NCBI GenBank assembly: GCA_951406725.2
Contig: OX597823.1
Coordinates: forward strand, 117,552,001-117,616,000
Reading direction: 5' to 3'
DNA from: Octopus vulgaris
Lineage: Eukaryota
DNA: 64,000 nucleotides
Below are positions 1,003 through 17,285 of the stretch, piece after piece; the stretch's first letter is position 1; every line of letters starts with the position of its first letter. Made by a program: the position numbers and the translations under genes. The notes under the pieces were generated by a model. The model was not told the origin of the DNA and made no database searches. It saw nothing but the letters and a program-made list of their open reading frames with translations.

Positions 1003-1606
1003 ATTAATTTTAAAATTTAGTTGACACAAAAGCAGAGGATTTCAATAAAAATATGGTAACAATATAGGGTTAATTAGTATTGCCTTTTGGGCTAAACCCC
1101 AAGAAGTAGTATACCTTGCTGGAATGCCTTTGAACATAGCACATATTTGATTTAGAGTTGAGCTTGGGCTAAACAAAACAAACATCAATAACAACAACAA
1201 TATCAATAACAATAATATGAACAACACCAACAACATGAACATCATTAACAGCAACATCAACAACAACAACAGCAGCAGCATCCTGGTTTCGTGATGAAGT
1301 TAAACTTTTGGTTCAAGCTATTTGAACCTTCACAGATGTGAAAATTCAAGAGGAAGGTGGGGTCAGAAACAAACAACTAGGCATTAGTTTGTTTTTCTTT
1401 TACAAAAATTATCTTAGAAACACAGAGTTTTTATTTGTTACACATTATTTGTTAAATATAATCGAACATTCTACCATTCCAACTTCTAACCAGCACTTGT
1501 CAGCTGAAAAGTACAGTGATTTTGAATCTAAATTCCATCTCAGAGATTTTCTTACCATTTTTAAAGTGATGCCAAATCTCAAAGAAAATCAAAAAAGAAA
1601 CTGAAT

Positions 1607-1636
1607 TACATACATACATATATATACATACATAGA

Positions 1637-1668
<32 letters not shown>

Positions 1669-1726
1669 CATACATGCATACATATATATACATACATGCA
1701 TACATATATACATACATACATACATA

Positions 1727-1771
<45 letters not shown>
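1607..1771. repeat. (TACA)n-(TC)n-(TA)n microsatellite
   Basis: Direct reading. Confidence 0.95.
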
Positions 1772-1775
<4 letters not shown>

Positions 1776-2135
1776 ACAAAAATCTATTGAATATTTATGA
1801 TAATCTATCTATAAAATTTGTGTTTTGTTTTTTTTCTTCTGATTCTGCCATTCCGTTGGCCTTCCCTCCTCATTCAAGAACCCTTGTTTGATTTATTTTC
1901 ACGTGGATCCATCCATCAAAAACATTTAATCAAAGCAGGCCTCATTCTGCCTCTGCACTCGCTCTTGTCGAGAAGTTAGCAAGGTAATGGCATAGAATGA
2001 GATATGCACATCTAAAACAACAACAACAACAGTAATAAATGGGACAAGAAAACATGAAAAATTAAACAAAAAAATCAACAAACAGAAGAATATTGACTAA
2101 TGTTTGGGAAAAGGATGAGAGGGAAGTAAAAAAAT

Positions 2136-2251
2136 TATGTGTATGTGTGTGTGTGTATCTGTCTATGTATCTAGGTCTATCGACATATATATATATATCC
2201 ATCTGTCTTTCTCTCTCCTTCTGTGTGTATATGGGTGTGTGTGTGTGCATA

Positions 2252-2293
<42 letters not shown>

Positions 2294-2650
2294 TATGTAT
2301 GTATATGTTAAACGACGATGATGATGTTGATGATGATGATACATTTATATATATACTTGCATACTTATAGACATATATATGTGTATAAATGTATGTATAT
2401 GCATACGTATACATATATACATTCAGAGAAAGGAAGAGAGAGAGAATATAGATAGATATGTCTGTATGTGTGCATACAAAAACACACATAAGCATATGCA
2501 TATATGCATACATAGTTATATAGACAAATATTCACATACATATATATATAGCAATACACATATGTACATGTGTGTGTACACACACTCCTGCATATATATA
2601 TATATATATATATACACATGCACACATATGTACTCACACACATATGAATG
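2136..2650. repeat. Degenerate TA/TG/CA microsatellite field
   Basis: Direct reading. Confidence 0.9.
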
Positions 2651-2896
2651 TCTATAAAGTACCTTAGTTGCAGATAAATCCCAAAAATTCAATTATCTCA
2701 ACTGATTTTCTTCAGGAACATTTCAATAAAGCATTTTTTCTCCATTTTCTTTTTGTTATATTTCCTTTCATATTTTTCTATTATTTTTGTTTTTCGTATG
2801 TTTTTATGATTTATTAATTTTTTTTTTTTATTTTTGTTTGGTTGATTTCAAGGGAAAAAAAAAATATCTAACACTTGTTAAGTCAACTGAAAATCA

Positions 2897-3390
2897 GTGG
2901 TGGTTGTTGTTGTTGTTGTTGTTGTTGCTATTTTGCAGTTGTGATTGTTGTGGTGGTTGCAGTTGTGTTGTAAGTGTCATGCTGGTTGTGGTTGCAGTGA
3001 TTGTCACAGTATTGGTTGTGGTGGCTGTTGTGAATGCAGTTGTGGTGGGGGTTGTGTTGGTGGTGGTGGTGGTGTTTGTTTTTGTACTTGTTGTTTTATT
3101 GTCAGTAATTTACCGGTTGTACTGAAACTAAAGAGATAACAACATAAATGAAGATGATGATGACGACGACAATGTCGATGACAACAATAAAAATGACAAG
3201 AACAAAGATATCAAAGACAACAATGGCAGCAGGGTGGTGGTGGTGGTGGTGGCAGTCGTGGCAGCAGTGGTGGTTGCGGTGCTGGTGGTTGTGACGGGGT
3301 TGATGATGATGATGGTAATGACTACGACGGCGACGATGATAATGATGACGATGATGACGGCAACAAAGAAGAAGAAGAAGATGATGATGA
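2897..3390. repeat. Degenerate triplet repeats (GTT, GGT, GAT, GAA)
   Basis: Direct reading. Confidence 0.9.
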
Positions 3391-4025: not shown

Positions 4026-5199
4026 GGGATCCAGACAACCCCTCCCTAGAACTACCCTAGGTCAACCCCACCACAGGAGAAAGTCACCTCAGACAAAACC
4101 CCGTCAGTAATATTCTTTGGTTATATTTTGGTTTTTTGTCTCTTTTTTACTCGTTTCAGTAACGACCCCAGAATTTCTTTATTTTCTTACTTGTCTCAGT
4201 CATTAGACTGTGGCCATGCTGGATCACTGCCTTGAAGAATTTTTTGTTGCAGAATAATCAGCATTTTAAAATTTAAAGTCTTTTGTTTTCTCCTCTCTGC
4301 ACTTAGAGATTAATCAGAATGATCTGACCTTTTGAACTTTCTCCAGCTGTTGAAGGTCTAATAGAATTATGGTCAGTGGAGTGCTGGTCATTCAAACATA
4401 CTTATTATTTCTATCTTTTCAAACATTTCTTGAAGAAAATAGTTGCTGAAGCATGGAACAAACTGCCGGCATCGGTTGTTAGTTGTCGGAGCTCTGCATC
4501 CTTCAAAACTTCCATGCTTCCTGAGATTCGCCAACACTACACCTGATTTTCTCCCCTCCATACACACACAAGCATGTATCTGACTCATATACTGTTCACT
4601 TCCCAGACATTTGCACATTACTGCATATACTTTATATGCACTTTTGACAAGTTGTGCTGCACCTGAGCCCTGTATACCAGAATTGCATTATCATATTACT
4701 TCCCATTTTGTTAAACTTCAATCAATTTGTACTTTGAGTAGTAAAGAGTCTTGTGTTCCTACTTATTTATTTTTGATTGAATATATTTTTGTTTACTAAA
4801 AAATTGGAACCGTGATTTCCATTTTTGTTTACGTGAAATTATAAAAAGAAATTAAAGAGATTTGACTGCTGTTTCTAGCATATGAAGAGACCTTTCAGAC
4901 TTAACTTCATGTGCTGGTTGAAAATCATCTAAAACATTTCTGTGGTTGATACATTCAACTAAAAATTCTTCAAGGTGGTGCCCCAGTCAAATAACTGCAA
5001 CAAGTGAAAAGGAAAAAAAAATTCTGGGGTCGATTCGTTCAACTAAAAATTCTTCAAGGTGGTGCCCCAGCATGGCCACAGTCTAATGACTGAAACGAAA
5101 AATAACCAAAAGAATGTAACCAAGGGGGTTTTGTCCACTTTTGCACTTTAACTATAGGGGTTTTGTCCTGGGGTGGGGTGGGGTGGTTGACCTACACTC
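4026..5199. mobile_element. Non-autonomous MULE-like/foldback element with a 9-bp TSD
   Basis: AAAATAGGT at 4017-4025 and 5200-5208. Inverted subterminal motifs TAGGTCAACC..GACAAAACCCC / GGGGTTTTGTC..GGTTGACCTA. Confidence 0.6.
4438..4700 (+). mobile_element. CR1/L2-group LINE 3' end
   Basis: Translates to VAEAWNKLPASVVSCRSSASFKTSM...* (stop 4544-4546), the WNxLP..FK C-terminal motif of CR1-type ORF2. Confidence 0.75.
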
Positions 5200-5749
5200 A
5201 AAATAGGTACCCCAGAGTGGCAATAACTCAGTGCTAGATACAGTAGTCGTACTCCCAAAACTGGCAAATGCTTCTCTGACTTGCTGAGTTAACTCCTGCA
5301 ATTTTAGCTTGAATGCCGTCTTGACTTTGTATTCGGGGTCAGTTGACTTGTCCCCTAGATATACTACATAAATAGGAAGTCTTTAGTAGTTCTCTAATAA
5401 TCTATTCAGGTATGGGATTCACCAATTCTTAAGAGATTGTGCTAGAACTCTCTTCCAGTTTTTGTTTAGTTGTTTTATCCCTTGACATAAGCAAAAGTTA
5501 TTGTTTTGTTTGTATATCAGCCTTTATCCAGATCTATGATCAGACACTCCATTGTGACCATCATGTCATTTGTTTGTCAGATATAACATATCTAAGATTA
5601 CCTTATCCTATGTGGCCTGGGTTTCTTTTAAGATAGTAGGGAGACTTGACTGCTATTTCTATCAGATTAAGCAACTGTAGATATTCACAATATTGCAATA
5701 AGTTCTAAGTAACATCAACTTCATATTTACCAAAAAATATTCTTATGAT

Positions 5750-9492: not shown

Positions 9493-9549
9493 TCTTTTCT
9501 AGGGAAAGGAGCCGTTTACACGTGATTTCGATGTCACATTCATTGAAGG

Positions 9550-10319
9550 GGATCTTTTCCTTTTGAACGGCACATGTCAACACAATTTCTAGTTAACTAA
9601 ACACTTTAAAACTTCGTATACTGGTAGAATGTGTCAAAATAAAACATTTTTTCTCTTGGCTTTCTTGATAAAATTGTAATTCGTTTGTTTAACGTACTTT
9701 AATTTTTCGAATTTTAACCAATGAATTGCCTCTAATTGAGCTAAATTCATTTGCTGCGTCTAAAACTGAGACAACATCCTGTCCCCAACCCTACCCTAAA
9801 TTTTAGCCTTTATTTTTTTTTTCTTAATTGTTAAATTAATTTATGGATAACAATTAAAAAAAAAACGAAAGCAATGGAAAATAATTTAAACAATTAACAA
9901 ACAAAATAATTCTATAATTTTATACACACGCTTTCCGTACGTATACATAACGAAAGGCTAAAACGAAAGCAAAAACTCAAAACAAAAACAAAACGAATAA
10001 TTTTAGACACACGCGTAACAATTGAATTAATTTAACAATTAAGAAAAAAAAAACAAAGGCTAAAATTTAGGGTGAGGGTTAGGGTTAGTGACAGGATGTC
10101 TCAGTTTTAGACGCAGCAAATGATTTTAGCTCACTAGAGGCGATTCATTGGTTAAAATTCGAAAAATTAAACTACGTTAAACAAACAAATTACAATTTTC
10201 TCAAGAAAGCCAAGAGAAAAAAATGTTTTATTTTGACACATTCTACCAGTATACGAAGTTTTAAAGTGTTTAGTTAACTAGACATGTGTTGACGTGTGCC
10301 GTTCAAAAGGAAAAGATCC
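9550..10319. mobile_element. Foldback MITE with ~290-bp TIRs and an 8-bp TSD (Merlin- or hAT/MULE-type; superfamily uncertain)
   Basis: GGATCTTTTCCTTTTGAACGGCAC...GTGCCGTTCAAAAGGAAAAGATCC. TSD ATTGAAGG at 9542-9549 and 10320-10327. Confidence 0.92.
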
Positions 10320-10394
10320 ATTGAAGGCGTGTGAAATAACCTGGACACATGGAATGTACTCGAAAAAACCCGTGGAAAAAATTATTTCACACCA

Positions 10395-10713
10395 AAGTAC
10401 GAACAGGTCCTCACACCGGGGCGAGGCATTTTTCAATAATATTTTCTTTGAAATATTTAAAACGTCTTCCTTCCATACAGAAGGATCTGAAGACCACAGT
10501 TCGCTTTTCTATTTCTTCAGCATCAAACCCGGGTGTTATTATGATATCCCCGTCTTCTTCCTTCATCCTGGAAAAATAATCTTTCAATTCTACATTGTTC
10601 AACACAATGGTCTTTGTTTCCACAGCGAAAACGTCAGCAAATTTTTTGTTATCAACATAACTCTCATTGAGAGTGCTTTCAGAAACTTTTTCTTTTAAAA
10701 TTTCCACCGACAT
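10395..10713 (-). pseudogene. Truncated retrotransposon ORF1 N-terminus
   Basis: Aligns by eye with the ORF1 starting at 14492. Confidence 0.8.
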
Positions 10714-11185
10714 GTTTGGTCAAAATTACTGATGCACAAAAACAGTTTCACAAAAGTGTTCACAAAATTAGTTTCAATTTTTCCCCACCCCCTTTACGGG
10801 GCGAGGCACAAGAAAAAAACTTACGACGGCTTGAAAAAGGTTTCAATTGCACGAAAAAAACGTTTTTTGCCTTACCTTCCCGACAGAGAAGCAGAAAAAA
10901 TCCAAAGTACAGGTAATCCACGCAATAACAACGAATTTTGCCCCCTTTAGGGGGCGTGGCAGAAAAAAGCTTACATCGGCTTGAAAAAAAGTTTCAATGC
11001 CCAATTGAAGTTAAAAAGGTCTCTATACCTTATCGTCCCGATAGGGAACCATAACAATTTTTTAAAAACACGTATATCCACAAGAACTGCGCTCCAACGA
11101 ACACAAAGAGTTAATCCACAATGGCAAGTTATGTTTTGCTCCAAAATGGAGACTACGGTAACCTGAAGCACTCTCCAAAAATGGA
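10395..11185 (-). mobile_element. Tx1/L1-type array unit 3: 5' UTR plus start of ORF1, 3'-truncated
   Basis: The ORF from 10713 (MSVEIL..MKEEDGD..EKRTVVF..NIIEKCLAPV) is homologous to units 1 and 2. It is preceded by a target-motif copy at 11186-11201. Confidence 0.85.
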
Positions 11186-11411
11186 GGAAAGCACGCTACT
11201 TTATTTCATATAATTTGCCATTTAGGCATTTTCAAAGAGGGGACAAACATGGACAGACAAACATAAAGGGTGAAGTAGCTTAACACGGTTAAAAATTTTG
11301 AATGAAATTATGGATGAGGTTATAAACAATGAATTTTACGAAGACAATGTTTAAAAATATTACTTAATGATCATGTCGAAGAACAGACACCCAGCCATCC
11401 GGGTAGAACCT

Positions 11412-13335
11412 TTACTTCTTGTTAATCAACCCCTGGCCAGAGACAAAGGTGCCTGTCACTATACCTTTCGTACGCGTCTTCCATACTGTTTCTTTCAGTA
11501 TGGCTACTACACAGATAAAACAAGCCTTTCTTTCCCTGTTAAGGAAAGGAGGCGGCACAATTTTGATGATAGACTCAGCTGATAGCTGTACTCTTCCCAT
11601 CACTGACAACATTTGTTCGGCAAAAGCTATCAGTCCCGATAACTCCGGACATCCCACGAATGTGTGCAAGACGGTTTCCCTATCCTGCTCACTTCGCGGG
11701 CATGTCGGCGAGACGGCACTTCCGTGCCTTGACAGCTAGTCGTGAACAGGTAACGCCGCACGGAAACACTGCCAGGACAGGGATTTCTGATAATTATCAG
11801 ATACCTCGGCCCGAACATCCCCCGGAACAGGTTGACCAACTGATTTTCATCGTAGCCCAGGGTCTCCCTCAAGGCGTCTTCTGACATAAATTCCACTAAC
11901 CCACTATAGAAATCCATGGTGGAACTCCTGTTGCCCGCCTGAGAGAGTAGATGGAGCACCTGACGGCACTCCAAATGCCATTCACCCAGTTTAGGTCTCC
12001 GCTTGATCCATGCACCGATGTCCATTAGGGATGTTAACTGGGGAAGGTAGAACCGGACGTGCGGTGACCACACCTGCTCTCCATCCAAGTAAAGCCAGAG
12101 GTGCCTCAACCTTAACGTGAGTTTTCGCATCTTCAGCCAAGGCATCCCTAGCCCACCCTTTAGCGGTTTCTGGCAGCAGACAGAGCGCTTTACAAGTGGC
12201 TTTCCTCCTTTCCACAAAAAGCGGAAAAGGATTCTCTCCAACTTGTTCAGCCACAAATCGGGGCAAGGCACCACGGTCAGACGGTAGGTGATTACTGATG
12301 CTATAAACATCTGCACCACCTCCGCCTTCCCTAGCAGGGATAGCGCCTGCCCAGACCAGGTCTGGGTTAGAGCGGTCACCCTGCTGGCCACCTCACTCCA
12401 ATTTTTCTCTATCTGGAGGTCTGGACCAATCCAGATGCCGAGCAGCTTAACAGGACCTTCTATCCAACGCCCCATGACGTTATTGGACGGCATCGGCTTG
12501 CCCCTCCAGGTGCCGAGTTGCAAACTGACCGACTTGTCCTTGTTAACCTTTGCTCCTGCCACCGCCTTGTAGCTTTTGATGGCCTCTTCCACCACTGGAA
12601 GCTGGCCTTCGTCTGCCACGATGATGGAGGTGTCATCCGCATACGGCGTAGCTCCTCTTCCATACCATAGATCATGTGGCGCACTCCCTAGTGCCTCCAA
12701 CTTCTGCAGCAGAGGCTCAAGAGCCAATACATATAGAAGCGGGGACAGGGGACACCCTTGACGAACTGAACGCTCGATCCTGAACGGCTTCGAAAAGAAA
12801 CCGTTCACCTTGACTACAGACTCGATGTCGCTATACAAAGCAGCGATCTAACCTCGAAAGGTCAGGCCCAGGCCAGCCTCCCCGAGGACCACTGCCAAGT
12901 ACCGATGGTCGACCCTATCCAATACTTTAGACTGGTCTAAATGCACCAGTGCTCCCCCTGCGCCAGAAAGCTTCCCTACCCTCTCTAAGGAGTAGGATAT
13001 AAGGTGGAAATTGTCATGGACCGTTCTGCCCGGGATAGCGCACGTTTGCACTTCCCCGACAAGTTTGTCCACGACCCGTGCCAACCTTTTCGCTAGCACC
13101 TTGGCCAAAATCTTTAACTCTGTGTTCAGCAGTTATGGGCCTGAAGTTCCCTATCTCATCCCCCTTGCTTGGGTCCTTCCTGATCAACATCACCACCCAC
13201 CAGCTCGCAGACTTGGGAATTCTCCCATTCTGCTGCCAGTTGGCGTAGACGCTAGCCAGCAGGTGCCCGAACAAGTCTGGCATACTTTTATAAAACTCAT
13301 AGGGCAGACCATCGAGACCCAGCGACTTCTCTCAT
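11412..13335 (-). pseudogene. L1/Tx1-clade ORF2 fragment: reverse transcriptase plus C-terminal Cys/His region, no APE endonuclease
   Basis: KSxGLDGLPYEFY, FRPITLLN-ELKILAKVL, LDQSKxxDRVD, VRQGCPLSPLLY, YADD, GGLG, CPR..ETVLHTFVGC. There are several stops and frameshifts. The ORF-track piece 11630-12838 is the core. Confidence 0.95.
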
Positions 13336-14492
13336 TTGTATATTTGTCTCGAGTATCATACTCAATTAACACGAGTTCGTCTTTTTCGTCCTTTTTTTCT
13401 GGGCCAGTTGGGCGGGATTTTCTTTTCGGTGTCTGTGGTGTGTCATCGTTTTTATTATTTTTTGTAGGCGATGTGGACGGGAATAATGCACGAGTTCTTT
13501 TACGAACTATCGTAAATTCCCCTTCTGATACCTCCATGGTATCGTCTGGGGTAGCTATATTTTGTTTAGCCGCCGCAATTTTTAAGGGGGTGGGAGGTTT
13601 TAATAATGTAGAGGTTTGTGTGTGCAGGGTCTGGGTTTTTTTGTCAGTTTGTTTTGGGGTTGGCACCGTAACAGTGGGAGTGGGACTTTTTGTTTTTGTA
13701 GGGGTAGGTGAGTTTGCAAGGGTAGGGATTTTTTTATTATCTGAGGGGCCTGGTGTCTGGTTTCTTTTGATTGTCAGGACAGTCCACACGAATGTGGCCC
13801 TTTTTGCCGCAGGCGTAGCAGGTGGGTTTTCGGCCTTCGACCTGTACCCTGAGGGCCACATTCTAGCCCATGAGCACCCTCTCAGGAAGGACCTGCAGGT
13901 CCTCCTGTGTCCTTTGGATTATTACATTAATGCTCCGCCGAAGCCAATTTTCAGGGGAAGAGCATGTTACCTGTAATATTTTGATTTTGTCCGCCCTCTT
14001 ATATAACAGGGCGGCCACTACCTCTACAAGATCTACTTCTGGCGGTACTTCTGCAATCTTGACTCGGGACGTCCTACGTCCCCTATAGGTCGGCAGAAGT
14101 ACCACCTCCTTAGTTTTTAGGGGACTCACGGAATGCCTGTGGGCCACCTCTTCCCCCGAGAAGCAGACCTCCCCTGGCGACGTACACCATGTCCTTCCAA
14201 ATCGGGGACAGGCATTTTTCGATAATATTCTTTTCAAAGTGTTTGAACCTTCTGCTTTGTGGACAGAAGGTTTTAAACACTACGGTCCGCTTCTCGGTCT
14301 CTACGATACTAGAGGAGGGTGATATTTTAACATCACCACCCTCCTCTTTCATTCTTTTAAATAGCTTGACGAGCTGATTAACATTAATGTCAATGTTCTC
14401 AGTTGCCGCAATTTTTTTTTATCTGTGTTGGCACAGCTATCAACGTTGCTCTCCTCAAGAGCACACTTTTCATGAATAATCTCAACAGACAT
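13335..14492 (-). pseudogene. Retrotransposon ORF1 (RRM-like region plus CCHC zinc knuckle), frameshifted
   Basis: ATG at 14492 (MSVEIIHEK..), EKRTVVFKTF, LLPTYRGRR..VPPE, VEGRKPTCYACGKKGHIRVDC, then a Pro/Thr/Lys-rich tail. Confidence 0.88.
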
Positions 14493-14929
14493 TATTCTGT
14501 TGAAATTAGTTATACACAAAAATTACAAATACAAATATTGCTTTCCCACAAAACTGGGAAACCTATAAAAAGTTTTCCTCCCAAAGCAGTTCAAAAAGTA
14601 GTTCAATTCCCACCCCCATTCGGGGAAGGGGCACAAAAATAGTCTAGCAAGACTATATACAGTCACGAAGATGTTATAAATAAAAAAAGCCACAATGGCT
14701 AACAGTTCAACAATAACAAATTATCCAATTATTCCCCGGTAAAACCAGGGAACAAGACAGTTCAACAACATTCAAAAACAAATCTTCAGTAATAAAATCT
14801 AACAAGTAATCCAGATGGTACGAAGTAATAGTAACAACACAGCAAAACTCTTACCGAGAAGAAAAACACATCCAAACCATAGTAAGGTAAGCAAAGCTAC
14901 TCTTCAGTCAGTGAGGGAAGCAAAGCTAC

Positions 14930-16888
14930 TTTATTTTATATAATTTGCCACTAGGGCAGCACACAGAGTAGTAGCTACGGGCTGGACAAGGACATTAATG
15001 GATGATGGTGGTGGTGGATGAAGATGGTGATGGGAGAAGTCGAAAGCGCCCGCCGACTTTCGCTTCTCTAAAACAATGTTTCAATAAATACATTTAATAA
15101 AATGTTCACAATGATTCAAATTACATAAAAAATGTTCAACAATTCTTCTCGTCAGGTCCCCGAAGCAAATTGTCTTGCTGCCTGCAGACAACTCTGCAAC
15201 GACAAGTCGGGGCCTGCAAAGAGAAAGGTAAAGTCATTCTTTTCAAAGGTCTTTGCGACCCTTGACAAAGTATCTTCTGTTACTTTTTCCGCAGCTACCC
15301 GCGGAGGCCATAACGGACTCCTTGAGCCGACCGTGCCCTTACGCTCTCGGTCACCCAAGCCATTCAAGAATCTTTCCACTTCCTCTCCCTTGTGGTAAAG
15401 GAGGAGAAGCATCTCCTCTTCACAGGGAGGGACCTCACACTGCTCCGTCAGTGGCACACTTCCTACTGGCGGAGCCTTGTCCGCGGGTGGCACACATCCC
15501 ACCCGCGACTCCGTCGGCAACACAGAAACGTCAGTCGTCCGACCTCTCCTTTTTCTCCTCCTTCTTTTGGGGGAGACTGCTGACCCAGGGGACTCCATCA
15601 CCAGACACGGGGGATTGCTATCCCCCTTCGCCCCCTGAGCGTTCTTTGGCGGGCAACCATTGTTGCTCGCCTTTCTCTTTCTTTTCGTGGAGGCAACCTC
15701 CTCCACGACTTCCATCGTCTCCCCCTCCAATGAGGGGGCGGCGGGCGCCTTTTCCCCTCTCTGCTCCGGGGCACCACCATGGCCCCTGGGACAATTCTTC
15801 CTGATATGTCCGGGCTTCAGGCATAGGTGACACTTGGGGGGTCGACCCTCGAGTATCACCGGGTACCTGTGCCCAGCCATTCTCAGGAAGTCCGGGAATT
15901 TCATTTCTCCCACGGCTACCGGTGTCCACAGGGTCAAAGTTGCCCTCGACCCCTGCCAGGCGACCGCGGGAGCCACCTTCACACTCAGCAGTCTGGGTCC
16001 ACGCCGGATGGTCTTCTTGATCCATTCCGCCTCCGTGCCCGGGGGCAGCCCACACATCCAGGCTCTCTTCACTTTTCTGCCACAATACGAGGGGAGGAAC
16101 AAAATTTCCTCTCCCTCCAGTGGCTCGCTAGCAAATCTGCTAGCTTCTTCGGGGTACCAAACAGCAACCGCACCGTTGCAAATTTAGTCCCCCGAGAAAT
16201 AAATTTTATAGTTGGCAGGTAGTCCCCCAACTCTTTCTCTATAGTATTCCTGTCGAAGAGGGCAATGGCTCCACGCGACCTAGAATAGGTTCGTAGGACC
16301 ACCGTCCTCTTCTCAAGACTTTCAATCCACTGCTTGGGTGGGACGACCTCCCATTCCAAAGCGGTGGTTTCTTTTGTTGCCATGTTTTTTTGTTTTTTTT
16401 TTAAATAAATGTATTTAGAATAAAACTAAAAAAACAAGAAGAAAAGGAAATCCGAAGAAAGTCACAATGAAAAAAGGAGAGAGTCAAATAAAGTTAAAAA
16501 GAAAGTCAAAAACACAGCAAAATCCTTTTGGCCATTTGGTACTCCCGGCCTAAATCGAACCAGGATCGCACAACTTCCACATGAATTGGTGTAAAATTGG
16601 TAGTTCTTCACAGTACAATGCAATTCTCACAATTCGAAGGCGGATACGCCCCCAAAAATTTTCTCAGCGAGAAAAATATATTTGCCACATGTCGGCAGAA
16701 TCAGAATTCTGAATCCAGTAGGACTTCCTGCATGTAAAAATAATTCTCAACAAAAACTCCCACTGGACCCAGAAAACAGAATCTTACCTTACATTGGGCT
16801 TCCAAAGTTTTCAATTCAAGACGGCTTCAAAAGCACATCTTCACTGCTTCAGTGGCAAACACAACACTGACTCGCACATGCGCAGTTA
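14930..16888 (-). mobile_element. Tx1/L1-type array unit 1: ~1.96 kb ORF1-only (HAL1-like) non-autonomous retrotransposon
   Basis: ~500-nt 5' UTR, a single ORF1 and a ~220-nt 3' UTR ending TGCCCTAGTGGCAAATTATATAAAATAAA. Flanked by duplicated AAGTAGCTTTGC. Confidence 0.85.
15152..16383 (-). pseudogene. ORF1 nucleic-acid-binding protein (~410 codons, one frameshift near 16150)
   Basis: Joins ORFs 16069-16383 and 15152-16102. Contains the knuckle VILEGRPPKCHLCLKPGHIRKNCP (CX2CX4HX4C) and basic KRRRRKRR tracts. Confidence 0.9.
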
Positions 16889-16918
16889 GCAAAGCTACTT
16901 ACCACACAGCCACTCCTG
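16889..16918 (-). mobile_element. First ~30 nt of a SINE-B head (insertion target of the array)
   Basis: AAGCTACTTACCACACAGCCACTCCTG is identical to the SINE-B heads at 46708-46734 and ~58967-58993. Confidence 0.9.
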
Positions 16919-16920
16919 AA

Positions 16921-17285
16921 TCCATGTGGTCATGGATTCAACTCTCTTCTACTAGAGCCCCAGACCAATCAAAGCCTTGAGAGTGAATTTGATAGACAGA
17001 AACTGAACGAAGCCTAGCATATCTCTCTATCTATCTATCTATCTACATGCATATATCTGTATGTGTGTGTGCATATTTATGTTTGTCTGCCACCACTGCT
17101 TGACAACTACTGTTGGTTTGTTTATGTCCTATAACTTAGCAGTTGAGCATAAGAGACTGACAGAATAGGCACCAGGCTTTAAAAGCTAAGTACCAGGGTT
17201 AATTTGTTCAACTAAACCCCTTCAAGCCAGTGTCCAAATATGGCTACAGTCCTATGACTGTAACAAGTAAAACATTAAAAAAATA
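16921..17285 (+). mobile_element. SINE family B, diverged, lacking its head
   Basis: Collinear with 5790-6200. Confidence 0.8.

Follow-up and report, generated by a model that had tools for sequence, protein, structure and literature searches.

LINEs that carry ORF1 and are non-autonomous form a named class, to which HeT-A (Jockey clade), HAL1 (L1) and Ag-Sponge (CR1) belong (PMC5786205; for HAL1 also PMC5753468). Among the Drosophila telomeric families, about 40% are ORF1-only and able to found new ORF1-only lineages (PMC13534243), and in Dictyostelium TRE5-A.2 is mobilised in trans, while a heterologous ORF1 with 25% identity failed to support TRE5-A (PMC3159450). Moreover, elements of the Tx1 clade target other repeats (PMC4494074). 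As for octopus, PMC4758252 cites tRNA-derived SINEs, and a repeat annotation counts 13 L1-Tx1 families with recent activity, its available part mentioning neither targets nor ORFs (PMC13282606). All these statements follow the available parts of the sources. The locus analysed here lies in Octopus vulgaris (assembly GCA_951406725.2, contig OX597823.1, positions 117,552,001 to 117,616,000), and this whole stretch of 64,000 nt is referred to as the window. With good confidence, its element was assigned to an old multi-copy ORF1-only lineage inserted at one base of a tRNA-like SINE head, likely copied by the ORF2p of a co-inserting autonomous element of the L1/Tx1 group (hereafter, the partner).

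An ORF1-only element in a three-unit array

The body of this ORF1-only non-LTR retroelement was located at 16884-14932 on the minus strand (1953 nt), as the first unit of a three-unit head-to-tail array (16884-10414, minus strand) that continued with a decayed copy of the partner and a third unit. The following features were delimited:

16901..16918, minus strand: SINE-head remnant upstream of the insertion site; the head is tRNA-like by global alignment
16885..16900, minus strand: 5′ target copy, with a true duplication of probably ~9 nt plus an element-borne target look-alike
16384..16884, minus strand: 5′ UTR, 501 nt
16868..16872, minus strand: DPE-like RGWYV motif at a distance of 28-29 nt from the first A's in the target copy; an internal Pol II promoter candidate
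15152..16383, minus strand: ORF1, 410 codons; predicted RRM-RRM-CCHC followed by a low-complexity C-terminal half
15788..15835, minus strand: single CCHC zinc knuckle (Pfam zf-CCHC, E 0.021)
14932..15151, minus strand: 3′ UTR, 220 nt; junction without a poly(A) tract
14970..14976, minus strand: 7-nt stretch complementary to the target core (P 0.018 by shuffle)
14946..14958, minus strand: 3′ hairpin TGCC-N5-GGCA, common to the sister families and the autonomous partner
14916..14931, minus strand: 3′ target copy, doubling as 5′ junction of the following element
11202..14915, minus strand: adjoining decayed copy of the autonomous partner family
10414..11201, minus strand: third unit, truncated downstream; an autonomous-type relative represented by its target copy, its 5′ UTR and the beginning of ORF1

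The initial annotation had described a unit with a 5′ UTR, an ORF1 of ~410 codons with one frameshift, ~220 nt of 3′ UTR and no trace of ORF2, which was borne out in each of these parts. ORF1 ran from an ATG at 16383 to a TGA at 15154-15152. Compared with an intact copy, a 5-nt run near 16150 had lost one nt and, additionally, an in-frame gap of 15 nt lay near 16000 (410 vs. 415 codons). The 3′ UTR measured 220 nt (15151-14932). No ORF2 match was found in the element by tblastn (E<0.01), and no ORF2 remnant was detected in the 3′ UTR by blastn, where the last 38 nt alone matched the partner (E 0.019). The two target copies (16900-16885 and 14931-14916) were alike in 14 of 16 nt, the first 13 being identical.

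Within the array, the decayed partner copy had lost partner nt 1587-3184 (the end of ORF1 and the endonuclease) and 5108-5243, and the third unit showed 50% identity to residues 1-95 of the partner ORF1. Beside its cut-off, a long imperfect MITE-like palindrome with arms of ~250 nt (by eye) was present at 9530-10320, and an older SINE body, diverged and inversely oriented (16925-17015, plus strand), abutted the head hosting the array. A whole-window repeat search was dominated by microsatellites.

Copies, sister families and ORF1

When the element was searched against its own genome at the DNA level, at least 21 matches over positions 1-1961 with 92-100% identity were found, a lower bound because the best 37 of 2263 candidates were scored; chance was thereby excluded. 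The family thus defined (family A) comprised 38 near-full-length units at at least 21 loci, arrays included, with a common build, and its flanks past the SINE were unrelated at 21 loci. Therefore, the junction between the ORF1 stop and the 3′ UTR recurred across independent insertions, and the unit amplified at these loci was an ORF1 plus a 3′ end, no ORF2 match being found in any of the 38 copies. An intact ORF1 (414-415 codons) was present in five of them, in which the distance from stop to 3′ end was 202-213 nt. The mean substitution distance between loci was 0.019, some pairs differing by 0.002, which indicates a young or active family.

These counts bear directly on whether the element arose by a one-off internal deletion of an autonomous element, as the private deletions of its neighbour in the window might suggest. 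The same ORF2-less build in 38 copies at 21 loci ruled this out, and its likelihood is negligible also in view of ORF1 itself, which was 29% identical (over 190 residues) to that of the partner, the nearest autonomous ORF1s seen, and of the synonymous sites, which were near saturation between ORF1-only families (dS 1.1-1.8). Rather, the divergence from the partner ORF1 indicates that the ORF1-only lineage is old.

Moreover, sister ORF1-only families (B, C, D and E) of 1.5-2.5 kb were found at the same base, with ORF1s 30-72% identical to that of family A. On contig C1, 86 junctions were listed, 44 of which were ORF1-only, 19 ORF2-bearing and 23 without a coding match; this census joins 60 fetched junctions (28, 13 and 19, respectively) and 26 others (16, 6 and 4). 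Some copies were mosaics, such as C10arr_1603 (N-terminus of B type, C-terminus of A type) and L153 (N-terminus of A type, C-terminus of C type); in L117:2197-2808, L153 and L081, the 5′ UTR, ORF1 halves and 3′ UTR had been exchanged between ORF1-only families. The families A-D formed, together with an uncharacterised protein of Octopus sinensis (the nearest named protein, 60% identical), one clade on a long branch with a support of 100. Family E (L003:4150-4917 and L100:1767-2534), a 1.5-kb element with a 110-nt 5′ UTR and a partner-like tail, had an ORF1 39% identical to that of the partner and possibly represents a separate loss of ORF2; in quick searches, it fell among the autonomous ORF1s in a 32-row tree (support 80) and with A-D in a 12-row tree (support 84), where long branches meet.

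L1-type ORF1p consists of a coiled coil, one RRM and a CTD. The ORF1 described here had been annotated as RRM-like/CCHC, in agreement with the structure prediction, in which the N-terminal 206 residues (pLDDT 85) folded into two domains of beta-alpha-beta-beta-alpha-beta-like topology before the knuckle. The top Foldseek matches in the PDB were the tandem-RRM proteins raver1, UP1 and IMP3 (E 2.6e−4), with a TM of about 0.3 and a different domain orientation, and Pfam returned no RRM match in ORF1. The zf-CCHC match (E 0.021) was under the Pfam family cut-off; the C, G, H and C of the knuckle were invariant in 23 ORF1s. By language-model features, the ORF1 core of L010:2031-2648 resembled clusters with the two chordate ZCCHC3 RNA-binding domains plus knuckle (score 0.91), which is taken as a lead only.

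ORF1 is under purifying selection. The Nei-Gojobori dN/dS over the ORF1 core ranged from 0.06 to 0.38 in all 47 pairs reported, with an upper 95% bootstrap bound of at most 0.60; pairs with pN under 0.33 were considered, from copies with an open N-terminal core only.

ORF1 was nevertheless broken in 33 of the 38 assembled family A copies. A 1-nt loss in one 5-nt run (ORF1 nt ~190, window 16189-16193) was common to 20 of 37 copies, and 50 of 71 frameshifts fell in runs of four or more, which make up 14% of the ORF. Since the frameshifts concentrate in homopolymer runs, copies with the common loss are interspersed with intact ones on the tree, and short-read contigs across the 5-nt run showed no gap among those listed, an assembly error is the likelier reading of this loss. 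Among four runs tentatively taken as RNA, contigs of one (X1) covered 14919-16900 without the frameshift or gap of the window copy, one of them bridging the stop codon. Contigs from three other organisms' runs covered the element in pieces, and those at the stop codon reached 24 nt into the ORF, below the bar set for bridging. Real frameshifts would mean that the elements can do without an ORF1 in cis. An internal frameshift is also cited for the gag of HeT-A, in the available part of the source.

Target site, RNA ends and autonomous partner

All the family A copies whose ends were read were preceded by the SINE head (...GTGTGGT) or by the 3′ end of another element, followed by AAGTAGCTT, and the junction base was identical in every one of them. 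The empty target site had 30,451 exact matches in the genome, and three empty target SINE heads were present in the window itself (5760, plus strand; 46729 and 58987, minus strand). A pattern composed of the tail plus the target returned 1,086 junctions against 0 for the control; as this pattern contains the target itself, the off-target rate is outside its reach. Two copies (L022 and L026) had 5′ ends outside the SINE head. The head was compared with 25 distinct tRNAs of the same genome by global alignment, giving a best score of 46 against 23 ± 5 in shuffles, reached by one in 1000 of them. By local alignment the score was not above that of the best shuffle, neither ARAGORN nor Rfam made a tRNA call on the head, and no parent tRNA was identified among the 25 sampled.

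The initial annotation also reported target duplications at both ends. Target copies did flank the element, but the true duplication is probably ~9 nt long and the remainder of the 5′ copy came with the element. Specifically, the 5′ and 3′ target copies of 46 complete insertions agreed over 9 nt in 17 cases and over 16 nt in 12, and a variant (...CTTCTTACC) appeared as the 5′ copy in 15 of the 46 insertions and as the 3′ copy in none, so the target copy beyond ~9 nt is element-borne. Furthermore, 5′-truncated copies carried duplications of 7-11 nt. Insertions of the 3′ tail only (50-350 nt; L219, L226, L229, L234, L064, L066 and L080) were found at the same SINE base, which is thus struck also by insertions without coding sequence. 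This single-base precision, together with a junction common to ORF2-bearing elements, fits sequence recognition by an endonuclease. At another site (L216; G000:C1:111116891-111116968), two tail/target junctions were found on opposite strands, 50 nt apart.

Common features were also found at the ends of the RNA. The stem TGCC-N4-6-GGCA, ~13 nt from the end and enclosing a variable loop, was preserved in 50 of the 53 distinct tails; one of these 50 had the stem CGCC/GGCG, with a double change from T-A to C-G. A stretch of 7-9 nt complementary to the target core was detected in the tails of 13 of 20 representatives (shuffle P under 0.025), which are not independent cases, as the tails are homologous; it reached 9 of 9 nt in the partner and was absent in family E, some others and a relative that targets (TC)n. 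Likewise, the last 30-60 nt of family A matched those of the partner (z 5.5-5.8) and not those of the (TC)n-targeting relative (z 0.8-1.6). At the other end, RGWYV, which we take to be a DPE-like consensus and hence a candidate promoter motif, was found at +28/29 in family A. Among 76 distinct 5′ ends, it started at +28 to +30 in 30 and at +20/21 in 21 (some sister families), and it was absent from the 5′ end of the partner.

The partner is a 5.45-kb element with ORF1 and an intact ORF2, a frame of 1150 codons with EN, RT and zf-RVT (Pfam domains Exo_endo_phos, RVT_1 and zf-RVT). It had 108 exact 3′ ends and directly adjoined family A in the window and in the array C1arr. The available part of PMC4494074 takes more than 20% of flanks in one repeat as target preference; here, the same SINE base was occupied at all five partner loci fetched, as it was at all the family A ends read. 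The best match of its ORF2 among solved structures was human L1 ORF2p (E 5e−67, vs. 7e−20 for R2), which, with an APE endonuclease, an RT and a C-terminal zinc motif, places it in the L1/Tx1 group. A profile search of the representatives returned unnamed relatives alone, and no named Tx1 references were returned among the relatives of the partner RT; the partner is labelled Tx1 on the grounds of its architecture and target specificity. A second autonomous family (L106-L109, e.g. L108), with an ORF2 67% identical to that of the partner, has (TC)n microsatellites directly at its end; no target-complementary stretch was found in its tail.

Further diverged ORF2-bearing families occupied the same site (L067, L193, L206, L223 and the C7 array), with ORF2s 57-93% identical to that of the main partner. 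Mobilisation in trans by one of these, or by an element with an unsampled ORF1 of A type, could therefore be considered, all the more as the ORF1 search listed 150 matches and a minority of those with 63-68% identity were opened. This is nonetheless improbable: at 40 further ORF1 loci, an ORF1 of A or C type was never followed by ORF2 in its unit, and the six ORF2-bearing units with a visible ORF1 among the 60 junctions of C1 were all of the partner type. Counted against copying by the partner is the combination of an ORF1 identity of 29% with the failure of the 25%-identical ORF1 in Dictyostelium.

Spread at the DNA level, by duplication or unequal crossing-over between SINEs instead of reverse transcription, was also weighed. 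Distances within arrays (0.005-0.014) were indeed below the between-locus mean of 0.019, and four in-array pairs were 0.0005-0.001 apart. The flanks beyond the SINE were, however, unrelated at 21 loci, truncated copies had short duplications of their own, and array members often had their nearest relatives in other arrays or on other contigs, making this the main route of spread very improbable.

Proposed cycle and relation to described elements

The reading of an ORF1-only lineage copied by the partner ORF2p can be laid out as a cycle. Pol II transcription would start inside the 5′ target copy, giving an RNA whose 5′ end carries a target look-alike. The ORF1p, with its two predicted RRMs and CCHC, would coat its own RNA in cis, which would explain the selection on its gene, and the partner ORF2p may then recognise the common 3′ hairpin and tail. 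Judging from the junctions, the endonuclease would nick the bottom strand at 5′-TT/AC-3′ and prime reverse transcription there, the top strand being cut ~9 nt on; by analogy with established TPRT, joining at the 5′ side may be helped by the target look-alike, regenerating the target. As each insertion is left with target copies on either side, the same place receives further elements, and mixed head-to-tail arrays are built. Both transcription and mobilisation in trans are suggested here by sequence features, and in the same conditional sense the ORF1p may act as the RNA chaperone, with ORF2p borrowed in trans, that the initial annotation envisaged.

Its comparison with an invertebrate HAL1 holds only as an analogy. 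Like HAL1, the octopus element is non-autonomous, carries ORF1 only, has a partner of the L1 group and occurs in several lineages (PMC5753468 and PMC5786205, as far as their available parts go). It is not a derivative of mammalian L1, as its ORF1 is related to the CCHC-bearing ORF1s found in octopus elements, and unlike mammalian HAL1 it has two RRM-like domains plus a CCHC in ORF1, no A tract at the 3′ junction, a single-base target and an arrangement in arrays. In its site-specific head-to-tail arrays, it resembles HeT-A more. The Drosophila telomeric elements share with it ORF1-only lineages that found new families, a target common with the ORF2 donor and mixed head-to-tail arrays (PMC13534243, PMC2173066, in their available parts). 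In contrast, HeT-A belongs to the Jockey clade and has a host function at chromosome ends, whereas the partner here is L1-like (L1/Tx1 group) and the loci are interstitial, inside tens of thousands of SINE heads, with target duplications.

As in TRE5-A.2, ORF1 was kept, ORF2 deleted and the 3′ end is structured; aiming at Pol III units and mobilisation in trans would be common to both as well. However, TRE5-A.2 descends directly from TRE5-A.1 and selects its sites by position, ~50 bp upstream of tRNA genes (PMC3159450, available part), while the octopus ORF1 has diverged from that of its partner to 29% identity and insertion occurs inside the head at a fixed sequence. Ag-Sponge is likewise an invertebrate ORF1-present non-autonomous LINE but of the CR1 clade (PMC5786205, available part). 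Finally, Tx1, Keno, Kibi/Koshi and Tx1-Mar with SINEU-3 resemble the present system in the APE endonuclease and RT, the sequence-specific insertion into another repeat and the non-autonomous passenger on the same target, and the 67%-identical octopus relative ends in (TC)n, like Kibi. The Tx1-clade targets in the available part of PMC4494074 are DNA transposons, LTR elements, snRNA genes, microsatellites, satellites and 5S, with no SINE head and no ORF1-only passenger. No SINE-head-targeted or ORF1-only family of Tx1 type was found in the literature searched; Repbase, Dfam, subscription papers and supplements were outside this scope and may hold them. Thus, the ORF1-only kind is known (HAL1, HeT-A, Ag-Sponge, TRE5-A.2), and what is new with respect to that literature is its SINE-head-targeted radiation.

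A broader picture, which we regard as tentative and rather doubtful at present, would be that of a HeT-A-like ecosystem that evolved on a SINE rather than at a telomere. In it, a long-lived ORF1-only clade would outnumber its ORF2 donor by ~2:1 and swap 5′ UTR, ORF1 halves and 3′ UTR between families, with the RNA start in the target, and RNA that matches the target at both ends (through the 5′ look-alike, the complementary stretch at the 3′ end and read-through) might help to place insertions and regenerate the site. In any case, with the octopus families the range of ORF1-only LINEs now includes the L1/Tx1 group, in a mollusc, and a SINE is seen to carry a layer of retrotransposons that parasitise it. 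The partner offers a candidate for an APE-type endonuclease/RT with single-base specificity, and since the RNA ends match the target, a role of RNA in targeting is open to direct testing. Moreover, with diverged ORF1s, one target base, one 3′ hairpin and a young intact ORF2 donor, these families offer a natural experiment, replicated across families, on why an ORF1 of its own is retained by a non-autonomous LINE.
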